Source: Chiloscyllium plagiosum
Taxonomy: Eukaryota
NCBI RefSeq assembly: GCF_004010195.1
Contig: NC_057751.1
Coordinates: forward strand, 18,353,185-18,417,184
DNA length: 64,000 nucleotides
Direction of reading: 5' to 3'
Shown: one piece after another, positions 15,868 to 56,118 of the stretch
How the letters are laid out: each line of letters starts with the position of its first letter
Numbering within the stretch: the first letter of the stretch is position 1
The notes under the pieces: generated by a model
What the model was told of the DNA's origin: nothing
Databases searched by the model: none
What the model saw: only the letters and a program-made list of their open reading frames with translations
Program-made: the position numbers and the translations under genes

Positions 15868-16012
15868 CACCATTCATTATGAAGGGCCTCTCTTTATGCT
15901 TATGCCAGAAACATCGATGATTCTCCTCGGTTGCTACCTGACTGGATGTGCTTTTCCAGCGCCAAACTTTTCGACTCTGATCTCCAGCATCTGCAGTCCT
16001 CACTTTCTCCTG
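15868..16012 (+). mobile_element. Short Penelope pLTR-derived element, decayed HHR
   Basis: ..TTATGAAGGGC..GCCAGAAACATCGAT..TTTTCCAGC..CTCCAGCATCTGCAGTCCTCACTTTCTCCT, same family as 52156-52372. Confidence 0.75.
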
Positions 16013-19441: not shown

Positions 19442-22400
19442 CTCAGATGTTCTTTACATGAATAAGGTTTTTGGCGTGTGTTCTTTCTTTGACTGCAGAC
19501 AAAATTAAGTAATTACCTTGGCCTGCAGTTTTTGTCAAAGCAAAAAAAAGTGAAGACTGTCGCTGCAGGCCACCTATTAACAATGATTTCGGAATCTTAA
19601 TTGGAACATGAAGACGTTGATGGAAATATTACACTGTACATCAAAAAAGTAGTGAAGTGTCGAGAAATGTCCCTTGAACACTTAGTAAGGTTTATTTGCT
19701 GTATTGTCTGTTAAAAGCTTGCAACACTAGTCATTTTTTTCGAATCCATATTTGGAACTCCCATACGTTACCATGCCATGAACATATATTTTGTAGATAA
19801 TTCAATTTTGATTTGCAATCCAAGTTTTTTTAGATTAGATTTTAGATTACATTACAGTGTGGAAACAGGCCCTTCGGCCAAACAAGTCCACACCGTCCCG
19901 CCGAAGCGCAACCCACCCATACCCCTACATTTACCCCTTTCTGCTAACTCCAAAAAATGAAACGTGAATTGAAAACACAACCTGCTCTGGCAATATGTTG
20001 CAGAGCAAAATCTCAGAGTTCTCTGATATTTCACCTTCGAACTGTCCCTTTTGCATTACAGTGGACTTAAATGGGCAATTGTCTTTGAAAATGTATTGCC
20101 TCCTAAAACAGAAACTTTATGTCATCTGCCATGCAGCTCGGAACTTAATTATGTATTTTGGTGAAACAACTTGAGTGACCATGTTAGAATTTGTTCGAAA
20201 CAATTCATCACTCCATCCTACGGAGGGGAGCTGCAAGGGTTATTGTTGCAGACCGTCTTTTATGAATGTTTATGTCATCTGACTGAAAAATGTACAAGTT
20301 AATGAAAATGTTGCAGACTGCGTCGGAGTAGCAAGATATTGCGAAATAATTTAGCTCCGCAAGAGGCTTATGTGTTGCTATGAATGCAGAATATTGAAGA
20401 AATTTCAGTCTAGTTATTTCCACTGACAGTTGTCTGGAAGGCAGTCTGTAAAAGATTGAGCAAGCGCCACTGAACTCGAAACATGAACTCAGTTTCTCCT
20501 CCTAGATACTACCAGATCTCTTTAGTTATAACATCTTTTTTTCGTGTTTCTGCAAAGTCTTGGTTTCTTTACTAGTTAAAGCAGTAAAAGGTGACCATTG
20601 CATTTGAATGTGCAAATTTAGTTTTGTGGCAGTGAACTTAGATAAGAAATTGAATGTGGAGCAACTGTTATGTTCTTCCTCCTTTTATTTTAGGAGCATA
20701 TAATCATATCACAGAATCACAGAATCCCTACAGTGTGGGAACTGGGCATTTGACCCAACACATTCTCACTGACACTCTGAAGAGTAACATACCCAGATGC
20801 ATTCCCGTACCCTGTTGCACTACATTTCTCCTAACTAATATACCTATCCTACAAAGCTCTGAATAGTATGGGCAATTTAGCGTGGCCAATTCGCTAAACC
20901 TGCACACCTGACTGTGGAAGGAAACCAGAGCATGTGAAGGAAACTCAAACAGTGTTGCAATGAACACTGGACTTTGAATGACTGACGAAAGTAGGGCAAT
21001 TTGAGGAAGTGCATTTTATATCCAACAAAAGAAACAAGAATGCACAATGCCATGTGAAATTGATATTCTGAACTGATCGAACGGTTGACAGGATTAAATA
21101 CTTCCCAGTAGCAGGAAACTCAACACTGCATCGACAATGCAAGCAGTTCCGGAAACATCAGACTGAACATATGGCAGAACAATGGAGACTCAGTTGTTCT
21201 TTTCATGAGTAAGGTTTTTGGCGTGTGTTCTTTCTTTGACTGCAGACAAAATTAAGTGATTACCTTGGCCTGCAGATTTTGTCAAAGCAAAACAAAAGTG
21301 AAGACTGTCGCTGCAGGCCACCTATTAACAATGATTTCGGAATCTTAGTTGGAATATGAAGACGTTGATGGAAATATTACACTGTACATCAAAAAAGTAG
21401 TGAAGTGTCGAGAAATGTCTCTTGAACACTTAGTAAGGTTTATTTGCGGTATTGTCTGTTAAAAGCTTGCAACACTAGTCATTTTTTTCGAATCCATATT
21501 TGGAACTCGCAAATGTTACCATGCCATGAGCACATATTTTGTAGCTAATTCAATTTTGATTTGCAATCCAAGTTTTTTTTAGATTAGATTTTAGATTACA
21601 TTACAGTGTGGAAACATGCCCTTCGGCCCAACAAGTCCACACCGTCCCGTCGAAGCGCAACCCACCCATACCCCTACATTTACCCCTTTCTACTAACTCC
21701 AAATAATGAAACGTGAATTGAAAACACAACCTGCTCTGGCAATATGTTGCAGAGCAAAATCTTAGAGTTCTCTGATATTTCACCTTCCAACTGTCCCTTC
21801 TGCATTACAGTGGACTTGAATGGGCAATTGTCTTTGAAAATGTACTGCCTCCTAAAACAGAAACTTTATGTCATCTGCCATGCAGCTCGGAACTTAATTA
21901 TGTATTTTGGTGAAACAGCTTGAGTGACCATGTTAGAATTTGTTCGAAACAATTCATCACTCCATCCTACGGAGGGAAACTGCAAGGGTTATTGCTGCAG
22001 ACCGTCTTTTATGAATGTTTATATCGTCTGACTGAAAAATGTACAAGTTAATGAAAATGTTGCAGACTGCGTCAGAGTAGCAAGATATTGCGGAATAATT
22101 TAGCTCCGCAAGAGGCTTATTTGTTGCTATGAATGCAGAATATTGAAGAAATTTCAGCAAAGTTATTTCCACTGACAGTTGTGTGGAAGGCAGTCTGTAA
22201 AAGATTGAGCAAGCGCCACTGAACTCGAAGCATGAACTCAGTTTCTCCTCCTAGATACTACCAGATCTCTTTAGTTATAACTTTTTTTTCGTGTTTCTGC
22301 AAAGTCGTGGTTTCTTTACTAGTTAAAGCAGTAAAAGGTGACCAATTGCATTTGAATGTGCAAATTTAGTTTTGTGGCAGTGAACTTAGATAAGAAATTG

Positions 22401-35706: not shown

Positions 35707-35834
35707 GAGAAGAGGAGGACAGCAGATGCTGGAATTGAGAGTCGAAAAGTAGGCGCTGAAAAAGCACAGCAGGTCAGGCAGCATCCGAGGAGCAGGAGAA
35801 TTGACGTTTCTGGCATAAGGCCTTAAACAGGAAT
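35707..35834 (-). mobile_element. Short Penelope pLTR-derived element, decayed HHR
   Basis: GCACAGCAGGTCAGGCAGCATCCGAGGAGCAGGAGAATTGACGTTTC, same family as 52156-52372. Confidence 0.8.
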
Positions 35835-39974: not shown

Positions 39975-42900
39975 TGCTGGAAAAGGTGGGAACTGTAAGG
40001 TAAGGACAGGTTGCACTGAAACAGGAGGGGCACCAATGTCCTGCGCAGGAGTTTTAACAGTGCACTTCAGGAACGTTTAAACTCGTTTGGCTGTGGGAGG
40101 TAAACCAGCGCTACAGATCGGAGAGGATGTTTAGTTGTTGGTCAGATAGAAATAGAATAGAGAGAATTTGTCAGGAAGGATACACAGCTGATTGGGCAAA
40201 CGGATAGGTTAAAGTGCGCCTGTTTCAATGCAAGGAAAGTCAGGACTAAGAGTAACGAACTTAGAGCAATAACCAGTTCTTGGAACAACGGTGTTTGGCA
40301 GTAACAAAGACATGTATTTCACAGAGGCAGGCAAGTTTGATGGATGTTCCAGTGTTTAGACCTTTTAAAAAAAAACAACGAGGGGGAAAAGAGCATTATT
40401 TAAATATTTTACAAAGAACAGCGATGAGGTGAAAGAGGGAGAAGTAGCATCATTAGTTAGAGAGTGCATCACAGCTGTAGAAAAGGAGCTTGTTAAGGAG
40501 GGCTGAGTAAGTGTGGGTGGTAATAAGTAACAGAAAATGAGCAGTCACCCAACTCCCCTTCCCACCCCCCCCACCCCCCCACACCCACCCCACTTCCTAA
40601 TAGCTGCTGAGGATTGAAGAAACGATTGTGCAGTAGATCTAGGAATGACGCACAATGTATGGGTGAATACACCTTCAACAAATTAATTGGAACCTCCTTG
40701 TTGCAGATTGGCTTGGCGGAGCTGATTTCATCTGGTATGTACAGGAATCATTCCTGATATCATACGTAGATAGTCCAACAAGGGAGAGGCCATATTCGAT
40801 TTGCTGCTAGGCAATGTGCCAGGCCAGGTGCCAGCTCTCGTAGTGGGACAGTATTTCGGTGACAGTGACCACAACTCCTTACCCGTGCTATAGCCAAGAA
40901 GAGGGATAGGAAAAGGTAGTGTTGGAATATATTTAACTGGAGGAGGGGAAGTTATACTGCTCTTAGACAGGGGCTGTGGAGAAGAATTGGAAACAATTGT
41001 TCCAAAGAAAATGTAAAACAGAAATATGGAGGGTGTTTAAGGAGCACTTTTTGTGTTGGATAACATTATCCACTGAAACCAGCAAGGAATGATAACGGAA
41101 GGAGCCGTGGACGAGAAGAAAAGAGAAGCTTCCCATCAAGAGGAAGAAGAAGGCTTACTTGAGTTTGAGTTATCAAGGATTGGGTACAGCTTTAGATAAT
41201 TATAGAATAGCGAGAGAAGAGATCAAAAATGGACTGAGTAGAGATCAGAGGGGGCATTAGAAAGGCTTGCTGGAAAGTCTTAGAAAACTCAAAAGCGTCT
41301 ACCCTAAAGTGACGAATAAATGAATGCACAGAGAGAGGGGAGGGTTGATAATAGATAGTGGCGGAAACTTGTGCCTGGAGTTTGACGAGGTTGGGGAGGC
41401 CCTAAATGCTTCTGTATTCACTGGAGAGATGGACCTTGTTGAGGGCGAGAACATCCTGGAACAGTTTGATATTTAAAAAGTGGATGCTGAAAATGCTTGG
41501 TATCATCAAGATAGACAAGTGCGCACGGCCGGACCAGGTGTATCAAAAGTAACTACAAGAAGCGAGAAATGAGATTACTGTGGCTCTGGCGATGAATTTT
41601 GCACCTTCATTCTCCATGGTAGTAGTACTGAATTGTTAAAGGGAAGCGGATGTTATACTTTTATTCAAGAAAGGGAATTGGGAAATTCCCAGTAATTACA
41701 GAGCAGTAAATCTTACATCTGCGGTGAGCAAGATACAGGAAAAATATTCTGGATCATAGAGAAATAGAGAAGTGTAGCGTAGAAACAGACGCTTCTGTCC
41801 AACTCGTCCATGCCAAACAGATATCCTAAATTAGACTACTCCCATTTGGCAGCATTTGGCCCATATCACTCTCAACCCTTACTATTCATGTGTCCATCTA
41901 GATGTATTTTCAATGTTCTTCAGGAAGGGCTAATGCCCGAAACGTCGATTCTCCTGTTCCCTAGATGCTGCCTGACCTGCTGCGCTTTTCCAGCAACACA
42001 TTTCCATCTCTGATCTCCAGCATCTGCAGACCTCACTTTCTCCTCATTCAGTGAAGAGGGCTGGGATAAAAGTAAATATCAATTCCTGGACACAGCTTTG
42101 GGTGGGCGAAAGGACACAATGAGTGGCAGTGGATGGAAAATACTCTGTTTGGAGGTCGGTGTCCAGTGTTGTCCCACATCGATCTGTTCTACGTACCACG
42201 ATCTTTGCAATTTTGAAAAATGACTTGGATGAAGAAGTGGAATGCTGGGTTATTAAGTTTGCGATGGCACAAAGGTCAGTGGTGCCGTAGATAGTGTCGA
42301 GGGCTGTTTCAGGCTACAACAAAGCATTGACAGGACGCAGAGATGCGTAAGAAGTATAATATCGAATTCAACCTGGATAAATGTGAAGTGATTCATTTTG
42401 GAAAGTCGGATTTGAATGCTGAAGATAGAGTTAAAGATAGAATTATTAGTAATGTGGTGGAACAACTGGATCTTGAGGTCCAAGTAAGTAGATTCCTTAA
42501 AGTAGCCATCCAAATTGACCGGGTTGTTCAGAAGACATATGATTTTAGGCTTCCATTAACAAGGGGATTGAGTTTAAAAGCGGCGAGGCTTTGCTCTATA
42601 AAATACGAGTTTGACAATACTTGGCATTTGAGTCCATTTGAGTCACCTCATTATCAGAATGATGTAGATGCATTCGAAAGTGTGCAGTGGAGAATTAACG
42701 GGATGCTGCCTGGATTGAAGTACTTGATTTGTGAAGAGACGTTGAACGAGGTCGGGTTTTTCACACTGTCGAGAAGAAGGAAGAGAGGTGACTTCATAGA
42801 GACGTTCAAGGTTATGAGAAGAACAAAAAGAATAGATAGTCAAAGACTTTTCCCCAGCGCAGAAATGACTGTCACAAGGGATCATAATTTTTAAGGTGAC

Positions 42901-46376: not shown

Positions 46377-47216
46377 CAGGAGAAAGTGAGGACTGCAGAT
46401 GCTGGAGATCAGAGCTGAAAATGTGTTGCTGGAANNNNNNNNNNNNNNNNNNNNNNNNNNNNNNNTTGGCTGAGACAAGGTGGGGGGAGGGGAAATGAGG
46501 AAACTGGAGAAATCTGAGTTCATCCCTTGTGGTTGGAGGGTTCCTAGGCGGAAGATGAGGCGCTCTTCCTCCAGCCGTCGTGTTGCTATGGTCTGGCGAT
46601 GGATGAGTCTAAGGACCTGCATGTCCTTGGTGGAGTGGGAGGGGGAGTTGAAGTGTTGAGCCACGGGGTGGGTTGGGTTGGTTGTTCCGGGTGTCCCAGA
46701 GGTGTTCTCTGAAATGTTCTGTAAGTAGGCGGCCTGTCTCCCCAATATAGAGGAGGCCACATCGGGTGCAGCGGATACAGTAAATGATGTGTGTGGAGGT
46801 GCAGGTGAATTTGTGGCGGATATGGAAGGATCCCTTGGGGCCTTGGAGGGAAATAAGGGGGGAGGTGTGGCGCAAGTTTTGCATTTCTTGCGGTTGCAGG
46901 GGAAGGTGCCGGGAGTGGAGGTTGGGTAGGTGGGAGGTGTGGACATGACGAGGGAGTCACGGAGGGAGTGGTCTTTTCAGAACGGTGATAGGGGAGTGGA
47001 GGCAAATATATCCCTGGTGATGGGGTCCTTTGGAGGTGGCGGAAATGACGATGGATGATACGATGTATATGGAGGTTGGTGGGGTGGAAGGTGAGGACCA
47101 GTGGGCTTCTGTCCTGTTGGCGATTGGAGGGGCGGGGCTCAAGGGCGGAGGAGCGGGAAGTGGAGGAGATGCGGTGGAGGGCATCATCGATCTCGTCTGG
47201 GGGGAGATTGCCATCT
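46377..47216 (-). mobile_element. Young 5'-truncated Penelope-like element (GIY-YIG and 3' pLTR), spanning an assembly gap
   Basis: PLVLTFHP, CNRKKCKTC, HIIYCIRCTRCGLLYIGETGR..FREHL, LEEERLIFRLGTLQPQGMN. Terminus AGGAGAAAGTGAGGACTGCAGATGCTGG. Flanks TCCATTTACTCTTT (46363-46376) and TCCATTTTCTCTTT (47217-47230). Confidence 0.93.
46435..46465. other. Assembly gap (31 N)
   Basis: Run of N. Confidence 1.
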
Positions 47217-49686: not shown

Positions 49687-50024
49687 ATCGAGAATGTGGT
49701 GCTGGACAAGGACAGCTGGTCAGGCAGCATCCGAGGACCAGGATAATCGACGATTTGGACATAAACCCTTCACCAGGAATGGCCAATTCCCTTTGCCCAT
49801 GTGTTTGTTTTTAAACTTGAAAGCCTTTTCCATGAGGAAGTATCTGAAAGTCATGGTCAAATTGGTCCTAAAACCAATCTAATGCAGACACATCATTCCT
49901 GATGGAGGGCTTAAGCCCGAAACGTCGTTTCTCCTGTTCCTCGGATGCTGCCTGACCTGCTGTGATTTTCCAGCATCTCATTCTCGACTCGGATCTGCAA
50001 CGTCTGCAGTTCTCACTTTCTCCC
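49687..50024. mobile_element. Composite Penelope pLTR-derived insertion: inverted half + enclosed LTR segment + forward half
   Basis: Minus half 49687-49781 and plus half ~49893-50024 (CTGATGG-A-GGGC TTAA GCCC-GAAAC-GTC). Decayed 14-bp TSD; empty site at 53822-53835. Confidence 0.8.
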
Positions 50025-52155
50025 TCTGCGCCATTCCACCAACACCTTCTGTCCCTCCCAACCCTGCTTACTATTTCATTCCAATTCCCATCCAATATCC
50101 CCTCTTGAATGTTTTGAAATGAACGTGACACTGCTACATTGCCAGACACTACATTTGGGCGGATGCTTCCCAATGTTAACAAGGTGAGGTTGCACGCGTT
50201 TCTTTTTAGAGGGGTCTCAAACACAGATTCCAACGTGTCTGGTTTAGATGGGTTTAGGGCCAGTTTGACCATAACTAACAAATGTGCCTCAGGGAAAAAG
50301 GCTTTCGAGTTATAAAGGAACACATGTGAAAAGGGGATTGCTCAGTTCTTCGACCTCAGCTTTTCTCTGCTTCCACAAAGAACAAAGAATAAATAAAATT
50401 ACAGCACGTGAACAGGCCCTTCAGCTTCCAAGCCTATGCCTATTGAGATCATCTATCGACAGTTTTCATCTATTTTCAAAGAATCTGTATTCCTCTGCTC
50501 TCTGGCCAGTAAAGTATTTGTCTAGATACTTCTTAAATGATGCTCTCGCAGCCGTCTCTACCAACTGCACTGGTATCACGTACCAGGAACCTACTAAATT
50601 CTGAATAAAGAAAAGTCCACACATAGTCCTCTTCAGCTTTATCACACACACCTTGAAATCGTAACGCCTCGTCATTCAGTCCCCGCTGCTGTAGGAAAAA
50701 AGGTTCTTGCTGTTCAACATCTCTTTACCTCCCATAGTTTGATAGACCTCAATACGTTCCCTCTCAACCATCGTCTTTCTAATGGAAATAAATGTAACCT
50801 ACTCAACGTCTATTCATAGCTAGCGCCCTCCATACCAGGCAACATCCTAGTGAATCTCCACTGCGCACTCTCCAAAGCATCTACATCCTTCTGACAATGT
50901 GGCGACCAGAGTTGCATTCAGTATTCCAAATGTGGCCGATCCAATGCCGTTTACAACTGGAACATCACCTCTCAACACATGTCGTCAATACCCCGTCTAA
51001 TGAAAAAAAAACTTGCCAGATGACTTCTTGACCAGTCTATCGACCTGTATTGCTAACGTCAGCACACAATGGATCTGACAATGCAGATCTCACTGTGCAC
51101 CAGGGCTTTTTCATTTATCAAAAAAATTGTTCTAGGATAGGATGTTCTGAAATGCATCACATTGCAAAAGACCAGTTTGAACTTCGTCTGCTAGTCTCCA
51201 TTTAACCATCCCATCTATATATATTCTGCCCCACATTCTCACAATCCCCTTTACTATCTGCTTCTCCACTAACTTTAGTGTCATCTGCAAACTTGCTAAT
51301 CAGAACTTTTATACTTTCCTCCAGATCATTTATGCATTTCACAAACAACATAAATATGGTTGCAGCACATTTCAGTGTGGAATACCACTGGTAACTTATC
51401 TCCATTTTGATAAACTGCTTTCCACTACTATTCTCTGTCTCCTGCTATTCATCCAGGTCTCTATCCATCTTGCTAGTACACCCTGTACTCCATGTGACTT
51501 CACTTTCTCCACCAGCCTACCATGGGACAACTAACCAAACGCCTAATTCAAGTCTATGTATATTATATCTACAGGCCTTCCCTCATTCTTCGGTCATTGC
51601 TTTGTCACTTGCTCCAAAAAACTACTAAATTGGTAAGAAATTATGATCCCTCCTCAAAACCATGCCACCTATCACGGAGAAGACCATTTTCTTCTACATG
51701 GGAATGGATTCTATTCTCCCCGTGTCTGTGTGGGTTTCCTCCGGGTGCTTCACCATCTTCCCCAGCAGCTTTTCTACCCTGATGTCATGCACACCTGTCT
51801 ATAATGACCTGGATTACCCTTGCGACACTTCTTAAACAACCGGAGAACATTAGCAATGCTCGAGTCCTCCGGGACAAATTCAGTCTTCAATGATGCTGCA
51901 AAGGTGTCTGTTAAGGCCCCAACTACATTCTCTCTCGCTTCCCTCAGTAACCTGCGATAGATGCAAACCAGACCTGAGGACCTGTTCATGTTAATGCCTT
52001 TTAGAATGCACAACACCTCCTCCCTCCTTATGCCAATGTAACCAAAAGTAATCACACATCTATCTCTAACTTCAACATCCGTCATGTATCTCTCCTCCGT
52101 GAATACCAACACTAAGTACACGATTAGAATCTTACCTAGTTTCCATTACCCCAGG

Positions 52156-52372
52156 AGAAAGTAAGGTCTGCAGATGCTGGAGATCAAAGTTGAAACTTTA
52201 TTGCTGGAACAGCACAGCAGGTCAGGCAGCATCCAGGGAACAGGAGATTCGACGTTTCGGGCACAGGCCCTTCTTCAGGACCTGAAGAAGGGCCTGTGCC
52301 CGAAACGTCGAATCTCCTGTTCCCTGGATGCTGCCTGACCTGCTGTGCTGTTCCAGCAATAAAGTTTCAACT
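52156..52372. mobile_element. Palindromic non-autonomous Penelope pLTR derivative with HHR cores on both strands; 13-14 bp TSD
   Basis: Perfect 92-bp arms 52188-52279 and 52281-52372. CTGAAGA-A-GGGC CTGT GCCC-GAAAC-GTC at 52282-52309 and its mirror. (T)CCATTACCCCAGG at 52142-52155 and 52372-52385. Confidence 0.93.
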
Positions 52373-52526
52373 CCATTACCCCAGGCTTAGCTTTCCTCCT
52401 TTGTCCTCAATTCGGCCAATCCTTTCTGCATTTACCTTCTATTAAAAAAATGAAGGATTTTCCTTAACACCTTTTGCTACAGATATTAATTGAACCATAT
52501 TAGTTTTCTTAATTCCTCGTTTCATG

Positions 52527-52859
52527 TTAGATTAGATTAGATTACATTAGATTAGATTACTTACAGTGTGGAAACAGGCCCTTTGGCCCAACAAGTCCAC
52601 ACCGCCCCGCCGAAGCGCAACCCACCCACACCCCTACATTTACCCCTTACCTAATACTAGGGGCAATATAGCATGGCCAATTCACCTGACCTGCACATCT
52701 TTGGACTGTTTGAAGAATACCGGAGCACCCGGAGGAAACTCATGCAGACACGGGGAGAACGTGCAAACTCCACACAGTCAGTCGCCTGAGGCGGGTATTG
52801 AACCCGGGTCTTTGGCGCTGTGAGGCAGCAGGGCTAACCACTGTGCCACCGTGCCGCCC
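52527..52859 (-). mobile_element. HE1-type tRNA-derived SINE, young full-length copy
   Basis: Minus strand GGGCGGCACGGTGGCACAGTGGTTAG (A box), GGGTTCAATACCC (B box), conserved core, CR1-like 3' end and (TCTAA)n tail. Confidence 0.95.
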
Positions 52860-54157: not shown

Positions 54158-56118
54158 AGGAACAAAGAATAAATTGCAGCACGTGAACAGGCACTTAAGC
54201 CCTCCAACCCTGCATCTGTCTAGATCCTATATCTAAAGTTTTCATCTATTTTCGAAGGATCTGTATCCCTCTGCTCCCTGCTCAGTTAGGTATTTGTCTA
54301 TATACTTCTTAAATTATGCTATCGTATCCATCTCTACTAACTGAACTGGCATCACATACCAGTTGCGCACCAGCGTCTGGGTAAAAAAATGTCCACGCAT
54401 AGTTCCCTTCAACTTTACCTCACTCACCTTGAACTCATGACGTGTAGTAATTCAGTCCTCCGCTCTGGGAAAAAAAGGCTTCTTGCTGTTCACCTTGTCT
54501 ATACCACCCATAATTTGTTAGATCTCAATCAGTTCCCTCCTGAAACTTTGTCTTTCTAACGAAAACAAACCTAATCTACTCAATTTCTCTTCACAGCTGG
54601 CGCCCTCCATACCAGGCAACATCCTGGTGAATCTTCACTGCACCATCTCCATGACGTTCACATCCTTCTGGCAATGTGACGACCTAAGAACTGTACGCAT
54701 AATTCCAAACGTGGCCGAACCAATGTCGTTTACAACTGGAACATCACTTGCCAACACTTGTAGTCAATACCCTGTCCGCTGAAAGAAAGCATGCCATGTG
54801 CCTTCTTGACCACTCTATCGACCCGCGTTGTCAGGTTCATGATTGAACACACATTACATTAATTTTCCCCAGGACTTTTTCATTTAGCGAAAATGTTGTT
54901 CAAAAATAGGATCTTCTGAAATGCATGCACATGCCCGGATTGAACTTCATCTGCCATTTCTCCACCCAACCATACGATCTATATGTATTGTGCTACTTTT
55001 TTCTCGCAGTTCCCTTCACTATTAGCTACTCAACGAGCTTTAGTGCCATCTGCAAACTTCCTAATACGAACTTTTTTTTATTTCTCCAGATCATTTATGT
55101 ATATCACAAAAAGCAGTGGTTTCAGCTTGTATCAGTGTGGAGCACCACTGGTAACATAACTATTTGCAAAGTTCACTTCCACTACTACTCTTCGTCTCCT
55201 GTTGTTCAGCCAGTTCTCTATTCATCTCGGTTGTACACCCTGTACTCCACGTGACTTCACTTTCTCCATCAGCCTACATGGGGAAACTTATGAAACGCGG
55301 TACTGAAGTTTTGCATATGACATTTACAGGCCTGCCCTCAACTTTCGTGCATTGTTTTGTCACTCCCTCAAAAAAATCTACTAAGTTGGTAAGGCATGAT
55401 GTTCCCAATACAAAACCATGCTGCCTATCATGGATAAGCCGATTTTATTCTAAATGGAAGTAGATCTTTTTCCTCATCATCTTCTCCAGCAGCTTTTCTA
55501 CCATTGACGTCAGGCACATCGGACTACAATGACCTGGATTGCCCTTACGACTCTTCTTGAACAAGGGGACAACATTAGCAATCCTCTAGTCATCCGGGAC
55601 AATGATGCCGCAAAGGTGTATGTAAAGGCCCCAGCTATATCCCCTCTCGATTCCCTCACTAAACTGGGATAAATCCAAACCAAATATGAGGTCTTGTTCA
55701 CGTTAATGCCTTTAAAAATAAACCACACACCCTCGCTCCTTCTGCCAACTTGACCGAGAGTAATCATACATCGGTCCCTAATTTCAATATCCATCATGTT
55801 GAATACCGACACTAAGTACTCCTTCAGAATATTGCGAATTTTTCATGACTCCAGGCATAGCTTTTCTCCTTTGGCCTGAAGTGGGTCAACCCTTTCTCCA
55901 TTTACCCTCTTGATCCTAATAAAAGAATGGAAGGCTTTGTGATTTTCGTTTACTCGCTTTGATGCAGATATCACATGAGCCAAATTCCCAATACTCTTTA
56001 AAATCTTCGCACATAATCAAAATAGGGTTACCCTTAAACAGCTGCCAACCATCCACACACCTCAGCTCCTGCCGAGTTTTACTATAGTTGCCCATCCCCC
56101 GATTTATCATTCTTCCCA
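54158..56118 (-). mobile_element. CR1 LINE ORF2, decayed (unit B copy)
   Basis: Colinear with 50375-53160. Confidence 0.85.

Follow-up and report, generated by a model that had tools for sequence, protein, structure and literature searches.

Penelope-like elements (PLEs) are typically accompanied by an adjacent inverted, 5'-truncated copy, have a tail of 30–40 bp, often at one end only, and bear a hammerhead motif in the pseudo-long terminal repeat (pLTR) (PMC8557442; PMC3846280); in one described arrangement a 31-bp tail lies on one of two inverted pLTRs within a 9-bp target-site duplication (TSD) (PMC3846280). We describe a palindromic insertion at positions 52142–52385 of a 64,000-nt stretch of Chiloscyllium plagiosum DNA (contig NC_057751.1, positions 18,353,185–18,417,184; hereafter, the window) and its sister loci in the same genome. 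The comparison of these loci makes it probable that this is a severely 5'-truncated PLE insertion, in which each cut target strand would have primed its own complementary DNA (cDNA) on the RNA of the element.

A purified PLE of the green anole, the Poseidon element PAc (Frangieh et al., 2024, PMC11167929), cuts both target strands and extends each of them; it initiates reverse transcription at two neighbouring internal sites bracketing the tail, their spacing being equal to the genomic tail; and hammerhead cleavage is dispensable, with no reads ending at the cut site. Two adjacent start sites are also indicated here, and a lack of ends at the cut site is seen as well; the PAc hammerhead lies roughly 60–100 nt upstream of the start sites. 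Unlike PAc, which shows no strand preference in vitro, the pairs of arms studied here are mixed (one tailed, one tail-less) in 23 of 24 cases. Palindromic mini-insertions were not covered by the PAc study.

Similarly to endonuclease-positive (EN+) PLEs such as Pen2a_Av of Adineta vaga (Craig et al., 2021, PMC8557442; PMC3846280), the locus has an inverted, 5'-truncated copy placed head to head, a short TSD around the whole structure, a tail (about 31 bp in these elements) on one inverted repeat only, and a hammerhead in the terminal repeat. It differs from Pen2a_Av-type elements in that only the terminal ~126 nt are kept, with no open reading frame (ORF) and no direct pLTR pair; in that a single base immediately 5' of the hammerhead is all that separates the arms; and in its host, a shark-like vertebrate with about 19,000 exact 25-mer matches for one subfamily. 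Minimal hammerhead ribozyme (min-HHR) motifs occur mostly singly or as opposite-strand pairs 100–700 bp apart (Cervera and De la Pena, 2014, PMC4209133). Animal non-LTR retrozymes are likewise short, non-coding, hammerhead-bearing, and related to PLE pLTRs, but are built of tandem direct repeats thought to give circular RNAs (bioRxiv 10.64898/2026.07.22.740005), in contrast to the inverted pair with a TSD seen here. The layout is typical of PLEs, so that the locus is a clean example rather than a mobile element of a new kind; a sequence-only reading of the window, made earlier, had also pointed to the inverted-pLTR layout known for PLEs, and the insert indeed appears to derive from a PLE 3' end.

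Structure of the Insertion

Unit coordinates refer to an unchanged natural 200-nt copy from locus L048, in which the first C of CCTGAAGA has coordinate 1 and the tail ends at 126; the ribozyme is predicted to cut at 29/30. The features are as follows.

52142–52155, no strand: left TSD copy TCCATTACCCCAGG, the same as 52372–52385; empty-allele contigs (see below) link 52141 to 52372.
52156–52187, minus strand: 32-nt tail of the long arm, coordinates 95–126, the 3' end of the insertion unit; found on a single arm, with a match to the 3' ends of other copies as well as to that of the PLE copy at 46377.
52188–52279, minus strand: body of the tailed arm, coordinates 92 to 1, from the inverted repeat and from alignment to the natural copy L048 (coordinates 0–126).
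52251–52279, minus strand: hammerhead boxes of the tailed arm, read directly; predicted cut between 52251 and 52250.
52280, no strand: centre base, A on the plus strand, T in the sense of the tailed arm (inverted-repeat search).
52281–52372, plus strand: tail-less inverted arm, coordinates 1–92; identical to the natural copy L048 at all 92 positions.
52281–52309, plus strand: hammerhead boxes of the tail-less arm; predicted cut after C52309.
52372–52385, no strand: right TSD copy, by sequence identity to the left copy.
46377–46976, minus strand: 3' end of a 5'-truncated, frameshifted PLE copy, with the ORF end …LIFRLGTLQPQGMN…, a shortened 3' region, and then the terminal ~58 nt of the palindrome tail.
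55842–55861, no strand: uninterrupted target site in a paralogous segment of about 75% identity (alignment).

The repeat search of the window yields two arms (52188–52279 and 52281–52372) of 92 nt each, 100% complementary and separated by the single base 52280; a perfect inverted repeat of this length is far beyond chance expectation. The whole insertion comprises 216 bases, and its near-perfect palindromic part 185 bp. The flanking TSD copies are identical at 14 of 14 positions; T52372 belongs to both the right arm and the TSD, as the terminal GG/CC does to both the element end and the TSD. Read outward from the centre, each arm has the sequence CCTGAAGA-A-GGGC-CTGT-GCCC-GAAAC-GTC (that is, CC-TGAAGA-A-GGGC-CTGT-GCCC-GAAAC-GTC). 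The arms, their 1-nt centre, the TSD around the insert, and the hammerhead core on each strand had all been noted in the sequence-only reading and were found as described, the minimal boxes being legible on both arms.

The insert is asymmetric: its left side carries 32 additional nucleotides (52156–52187), which are the reverse complement of the 3' tail of the element. Its content is thus the last 126 nt of the element on the minus strand, head to head with a second copy of nucleotides 1–92 on the plus strand; the 126-nt unit consists of the minimal hammerhead motif, about 60 nt, and the 32-nt tail. As RNA, the insert folds into one hairpin at −194.9 kcal/mol, compared to −65.2 ± 4.8 kcal/mol for 200 shuffles. 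Direct pLTRs, or a partial tandem, are absent from the window copy and present in the sister loci L076 and L107; truncated copies need none.

Outer Ends of Unselected Copies

A 25-mer from the arm of the window copy has 9,501 + 9,679 = 19,180 exact matches in the genome. The first 100 listed matches, covering 18 Mb of contig C1, served as an unselected sample; they form 24 head-to-head pairs and 52 single matches, so that 24 of 76 loci are paired. All 24 pairs and 36 of the 52 singles were fetched, the last 16 singles being left out. The spacing of the two matches in a pair is 60–378 bp, mostly 143–176 bp. Eight of the 36 fetched singles carry an inverted arm or fragment missed by the 25-mer: it abuts directly in six (L081, L083, L089, L099, L100, L105), and two are doubtful (L086, L087).

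The outer ends of the copies fall into two classes, at coordinate 126 or at 91–108. Among the 28 unambiguous single-arm copies, 17 are tailed and 11 tail-less. The pairs, by contrast with the 48% of mixed pairs expected if the arms were chosen independently at these single-copy frequencies, combine one tailed and one tail-less arm in 23 of 24 cases (P = 5e-7); the remaining pair, L047, is ambiguous. The strength of this one-tail rule may exceed published accounts of PLEs, for which no targeted literature search was made.

The inner (5') ends of the 28 singles lie between −7 and +5 in 16 cases, further upstream in six, and inside the unit, by truncation, in six; for the arms of pairs, 36 of 48 inner ends lie between −9 and +11. 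Singles have TSDs and begin sharply at (CA)TT|CCTGAAGA. No clustering of 5' ends at the predicted cut (coordinate 29/30) is seen among the sampled singles and pair arms. Some copies run beyond coordinate 126 with TCGAAG(ATT…) (L012, L026, L031, L076, L079, L107), and in L107 the sequence past 126 continues for about 125 nt up to the next unit. Since these copies extend past the tail, the template RNA would reach beyond it, in line with internal initiation, and at least one additional, more distal copying start is indicated by their sequences.

In eight pairs the tail-less arm contains 5' sequence that is missing from the tailed arm, and in four pairs the reverse is seen. The eight, with each pair named here lying within one clean TSD, include L053 (tail-less arm 0–92 vs. 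tailed arm 59–126), L089 (2–92 vs. 55–126), and L065 (−3–91 vs. 17–126). A tail-less arm cannot serve as the source of a tailed one, and a tail-less arm with a longer 5' part cannot stem from a shorter tailed one; hence, to judge by their extents, both arms of these eight sister pairs are independent copies of RNA. Such pairs, as direct evidence of independent cDNAs and not of the snap-back proposed in 2013, may be new, again with no targeted literature search.

A first alternative is self-priming, or snap-back, where one cDNA reaches the 5' end of the RNA, folds, copies itself, and stops about 32 nt early. The perfect symmetry of the window copy with its 1-nt centre agrees with it, as does L036, one of the same-centre loci described below, which has full-length arms with a tail on both sides, as complete copy-back predicts. 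Palindromes at inverted PLE junctions were indeed read as self-priming in 2013 (PMC3846280); extension of both strands in vitro speaks against this (PMC11167929). The eight pairs with 5' sequence that only the tail-less arm holds contradict copying of one arm from the other, and the short-arm ends of 29 same-centre loci with a TSD, at 84–95 nt, overlap the 91–108 range of tail-less singles, which argues for separate priming. Moreover, an intramolecular fold-back with a 1-nt loop is impossible, and the window copy would require exactly that. Snap-back is accordingly considered unlikely.

In twin priming of LINE-1, the other target strand serves for a second priming event, which leaves an inverted 5' segment within a single TSD. 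There the inverted part comes from a different, more 5' portion of the RNA; here both arms span the same RNA segment, and the second arm derives from a fixed internal start, so that twin priming of the L1 type, taken as an exact model, was rejected.

Loci with the Same Centre

A search of the 3.56-Gb genome for the exact centre CCCTTCTTCAGG-N-CCTGAAGAAGGG (12 nt, any base, 12 nt) gave 48 loci, compared to none for the reversed-pattern control. The results below are for 46 of these loci, two on small contigs being left out. An own exact TSD of at least 8 nt is found at 29 of the 46, with a length of 9–17 bp (mode 15) and all sequences different, compared to 8 of 300 for flanks taken from different loci. 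The tail is present on one side only at 42 loci and on both sides at one (L036); it was not found at three, two of which are divergent copies and one N-masked.

The loci belong to at least four sequence subfamilies, with the diagnostic differences mirrored in both arms. The centre base, in the sense of the tailed arm, is A in 16, C in 11, G in 10, and T in 9 of the 46 loci, and this variation suggests that it is often not templated by the element. Among the 16 near-identical copies of the window's subfamily it is C in eight, G in four, T in three, and A in one. C or G thus stands at the centre of 12 of these 16 subfamily-A copies (L003…L044 and the window copy); that a G/C-rich centre base is a non-templated, cap-derived one is only an idea.

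If the mirror half had not been regenerated each time, subfamily changes would be unmirrored and the centre base inherited; on this comparison, the same-centre loci represent separate insertion events, with the mirror half newly made at each. The sequence-only reading had suggested counting copies with the same centre and independent TSDs as a check: such copies exist in number, with their own TSDs at most of the examined loci, while the multiple subfamilies and the variable centre base depart from what a single family would show. The long-armed pairs L048 and L054 have one flank in common, in opposite orientation, so that at least some pairs were copied secondarily within a larger duplicated segment.

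These observations bear on a second alternative, a distinct non-autonomous hairpin element, similar to a miniature inverted-repeat transposable element (MITE) or a retrozyme, which would be transcribed and retrotransposed as a palindrome. The identical centre at 48 loci, with most short-arm ends within a few bases of each other, is what such an element would produce. However, the centre base differs even between near-identical copies; diagnostic differences are mirrored within each of at least four subfamilies; centres vary widely in the unselected sample (spacing 60–378); the tail is one-sided in 23 of 24 pairs, and in eight pairs the arms are not mutual copies; there are no tandem direct repeats at the locus; and an RNA hairpin of −195 kcal/mol would presumably be a poor template. 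The proposal of the sequence-only reading that a distinct MITE- or retrozyme-like family is itself mobilised is not upheld by the variable centres, the subfamilies, the short arm ending where tail-less singles end, and the arms that are not mutual copies; we regard such an element as very improbable. A MITE was rejected due to the unequal ends, the TSD of 9–17 bp that is not fixed in length, and the origin of the arms from a retroelement 3' end; a non-LTR retrozyme was rejected since the two hammerhead units are inverted, with no tandem direct repeats.

Relation to a Penelope-Like Element

The left terminus of the insert matches 46377–46434 with 88% identity over 58 nt, beside the end of a GIY-YIG-type ORF, as the sequence-only reading had noted for a Penelope copy placed at 46378. 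In this PLE copy the last ~58 nt of the unit follow the ORF end …IIYCIRCTRCGLLYIGET…/…VAQHFNSPSHS…RRLEEERLIFRLGTLQPQGMN…. At locus L106 the same ORF end (…LIFRLGTLQPQGMN…) is followed, about 190 nt downstream, by the complete 126-nt unit.

The ORF fragment in the window has a Pfam match to GIY-YIG with E = 0.0059 and 17.3 bits, under the cut-off of 22.6; a scan of six window ORFs at E ≤ 0.01 yielded no match, and a scan at E ≤ 10 only this sub-threshold one. The closest database proteins are uncharacterised bamboo shark proteins, 72% and 58% identical. One of them, the homologue P0002, has RVT_1 (E = 0.0077) followed by GIY-YIG (21.7 bits), both below the cut-offs. Three long stretches were fetched in search of the autonomous element, of which two are 5'-truncated and the third is N over 2,669 nt. 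The order of the reverse transcriptase (RT) and GIY-YIG domains, the hammerhead motif, the tail, and the inverted copy jointly fit a PLE. The insert, on these sequence features, fits the end piece of such an element, while the protein evidence taken alone is weak.

A 31-nt N-run (46435–46465) falls within the shortened 3' part of the truncated PLE copy at 46377; N-runs inside or beside PLE copies are also seen in L107 and L044.

Empty Site and Polymorphism

The insertion lies in one of two paralogous segments of 1.6 kb, 50507–52155 and 54283–55855, which are 74.7% identical; the left flank aligns with 54283–55855 at this identity over the entire 1.6 kb. In the alignment the paralog (55740–56000) has the site once and leads on without a break to the sequence corresponding to the right flank; the uninterrupted paralogous site of the sequence-only reading is therefore present as one unbroken copy.

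Contigs of public sequencing runs labelled as the same organism were placed on 51950–52600 with a match cut-off of 95 in 100. One contig each of the runs X1 (602 nt), X5 (259 nt), and X6 (383 nt) links 52141 straight to 52372, the junction omitting precisely the insert and one TSD copy. They come from three samples of two studies and differ from the window by 3–5 letters over 209–336 placed bases. As their identity to the flanks is at least 95 in 100, these contigs represent an empty allele of the locus and not the 75% paralog. The filled allele is represented by a 457-nt contig of run X3, which covers 51950–52179 and ends 24 nt inside the tail, beyond the left TSD.

The insertion is young and polymorphic, being present in some individuals and missing in others, because the empty-allele contigs stem from three other samples. 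Its youth is also seen from the identity of the arms and from the comparison with the natural sister copy L048, where the long arm differs at one of 126 positions (coordinate 117) and the short arm at 0 of 92. The sequence-only reading had called it a recent, non-coding insertion, with which the TSD, the empty-allele contigs, and the identical arms agree. The presence/absence polymorphism of this copy may be new, no targeted literature search having been made. A clean, young, and polymorphic copy implies that the element was active recently in this shark-like species.

Palindromes are a known class of artefact in long-read libraries, and no contig covers the whole insert; still, a fold-back chimera in the assembly is practically negligible given the perfect 14-bp TSD, the one-sided tail, the independent X3 contig across the left junction, the empty allele that stops exactly at the TSD, and thousands of sister loci with an equal layout.

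Contigs of the runs X5, X7, and X8 break or change at 52076/52077, about 65 nt to the left of the TSD, possibly due to a second local variant; the order of the matched parts of the X7 contig is not interpretable.

Proposed Mechanism

Insertion by two cDNAs, one from each cut target strand, would proceed as follows. The enzyme of the element would cut both target strands about 14 bp apart, and both free 3' ends would prime separate cDNAs on the element's RNA. One cDNA would begin at the outer start site (~126) and give the tailed arm, the other at the inner start site (~92) and give the tail-less arm. Both would then run off the 5' end of the RNA at approximately coordinate 1, within a few bases of the upstream edge of the hammerhead. 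One extra base would be left at the centre as the two ends are linked, whether through a template jump to the opposite cDNA or through end-joining by the host. The abundance of such stumps could be explained if the unit is at the 5' end of the transcript and initiation occurs at the first copy of the start sites, so that the run-off product has this size. The motif TCATTCC just upstream resembles an initiator and might mark a transcription start at coordinate −3.

Several points weigh against this reading. As the arms are perfectly symmetric, the window copy alone cannot separate two cDNAs from one copied back, and it is the sister loci that decide. The published mechanism does not explain the mixed start sites of the pairs: in vitro there is no strand difference in the choice of start site (PMC11167929), compared to the almost always mixed pairs here. 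The joining of the two antisense cDNA ends is only inferred. On the protein side, all Pfam matches to GIY-YIG and RVT_1 are under the curated cut-offs, no RT domain is seen within the window, and the single long copy that was fetched, L107, is N over 2,669 nt including its ORF. As for the alleles, no placed contig covers the entire palindrome, short contigs ending inside the repeat; the allele calls rest on short assembled contigs rather than raw reads; and a second placement (contigs of runs X7, X8, X13, and X2) gave no clear call of filled or empty.

The near-obligate pairing of tailed with tail-less arms, together with the independence of the arms, tentatively suggests a further, rather doubtful possibility: a dimeric PLE particle would prime both nicked strands asymmetrically, with RNAs starting from helix I and a hammerhead dimer gathering the two templates. 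If so, the protomers would split the outer and inner start sites between them, and the ribozyme motif would act in integration as a structural element and not by cleavage.

The window locus itself is ordinary, one of thousands of PLE stump insertions. Taken together, the sister loci provide genome-scale in vivo support for PLE copying from both cut strands and from two start sites, which so far was shown only in vitro for one lizard element. Two observations are left unexplained by the published mechanism, namely, that the arms nearly always use different start sites, and that the 5' ends concentrate immediately upstream of the hammerhead instead of at the cut site; both can guide experiments on PLE integration and on the purpose of the hammerhead.

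Hammerhead Motif

Each arm contains the catalytic boxes CUGAAGA … GAAA-C-GUC, that is, CUGANGA, GAAA, and the UH cleavage triplet in type-I order. The features of min-HHRs used for comparison are those listed in PMC4209133: here, A9 is followed by an extra base between 9 and 10.1, G10.1 pairs with C11.1, helix II is GGGC/GCCC, the palindromic C–G 15.2/16.2 is present, and there is no helix III. The boxes are kept in most of 46 sister arms, which were chosen by a pattern covering coordinates 1–12; the fourth pair of helix II is U–A rather than C–G in 5 of the 46 (a divergent subfamily). Helix II has 4 bp, in contrast to 6–8 bp in the min-HHRs of Schistosoma and Drosophila virilis, and, unlike the min-HHRs of metazoan PLEs, the window copy has the other arm where the 5' strand of helix I would be (PMC4209133). 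Only C1–G30 is left of this helix (plus U–A on the minus-strand RNA), compared to a published length of 4–5 bp, while longer sister copies retain a 4-bp helix I, AUUC/GAAU.

Rfam hammerhead models, suggested as a check in the sequence-only reading, found nothing at the gathering score in the window, at E ≤ 10 at the locus, or on four sister copies with an intact helix I; at E ≤ 10 the locus matched microRNA precursors, which reflects only the long hairpin. Since the other arm takes the place of the 5' strand of helix I and folding would be dominated by the 92-bp hairpin, the window copy is predicted not to cleave; the same caveat in the sequence-only reading, that helix I is lost and the hairpin outcompetes the ribozyme, agrees with the single remaining pair and with the fold energy. 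Published min-HHRs self-cleave poorly in vitro (PMC4209133), and the hammerhead of PAc needs protein (PMC11167929). The hammerhead is likely carried along with the copied RNA rather than giving rise to the centre. The hammerhead cut site was rejected as the 5' end of the RNA, there being no cluster of 5' ends at coordinate 30.

Other Copies in the Window

Further copies of the ~125-nt unit are found in the window at 41924–42044, 49897–50023, 35716–35832, 15903–16012, and 49700–49778. Two of them, 49700–49778 (minus strand) and 49897–50023 (plus strand), form an older head-to-head pair, 78–86% identical to the palindrome and with a spacer of about 118 nt; its plus arm is tailed and its minus arm tail-less, in line with the one-tail rule. 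The copy at 41924–42044 belongs to another subfamily, and its 5' end, TTCTTCAGG, immediately before AAGGGC, is a 9-nt inverted stub that replaces the CUGAAGA box. A different repeat family, whose members are 91–92% identical and begin with short repeats of the GATTAGATTAG type, occupies 52537–52648, just downstream of the insertion, as well as 19830–19939 and 21579–21688.

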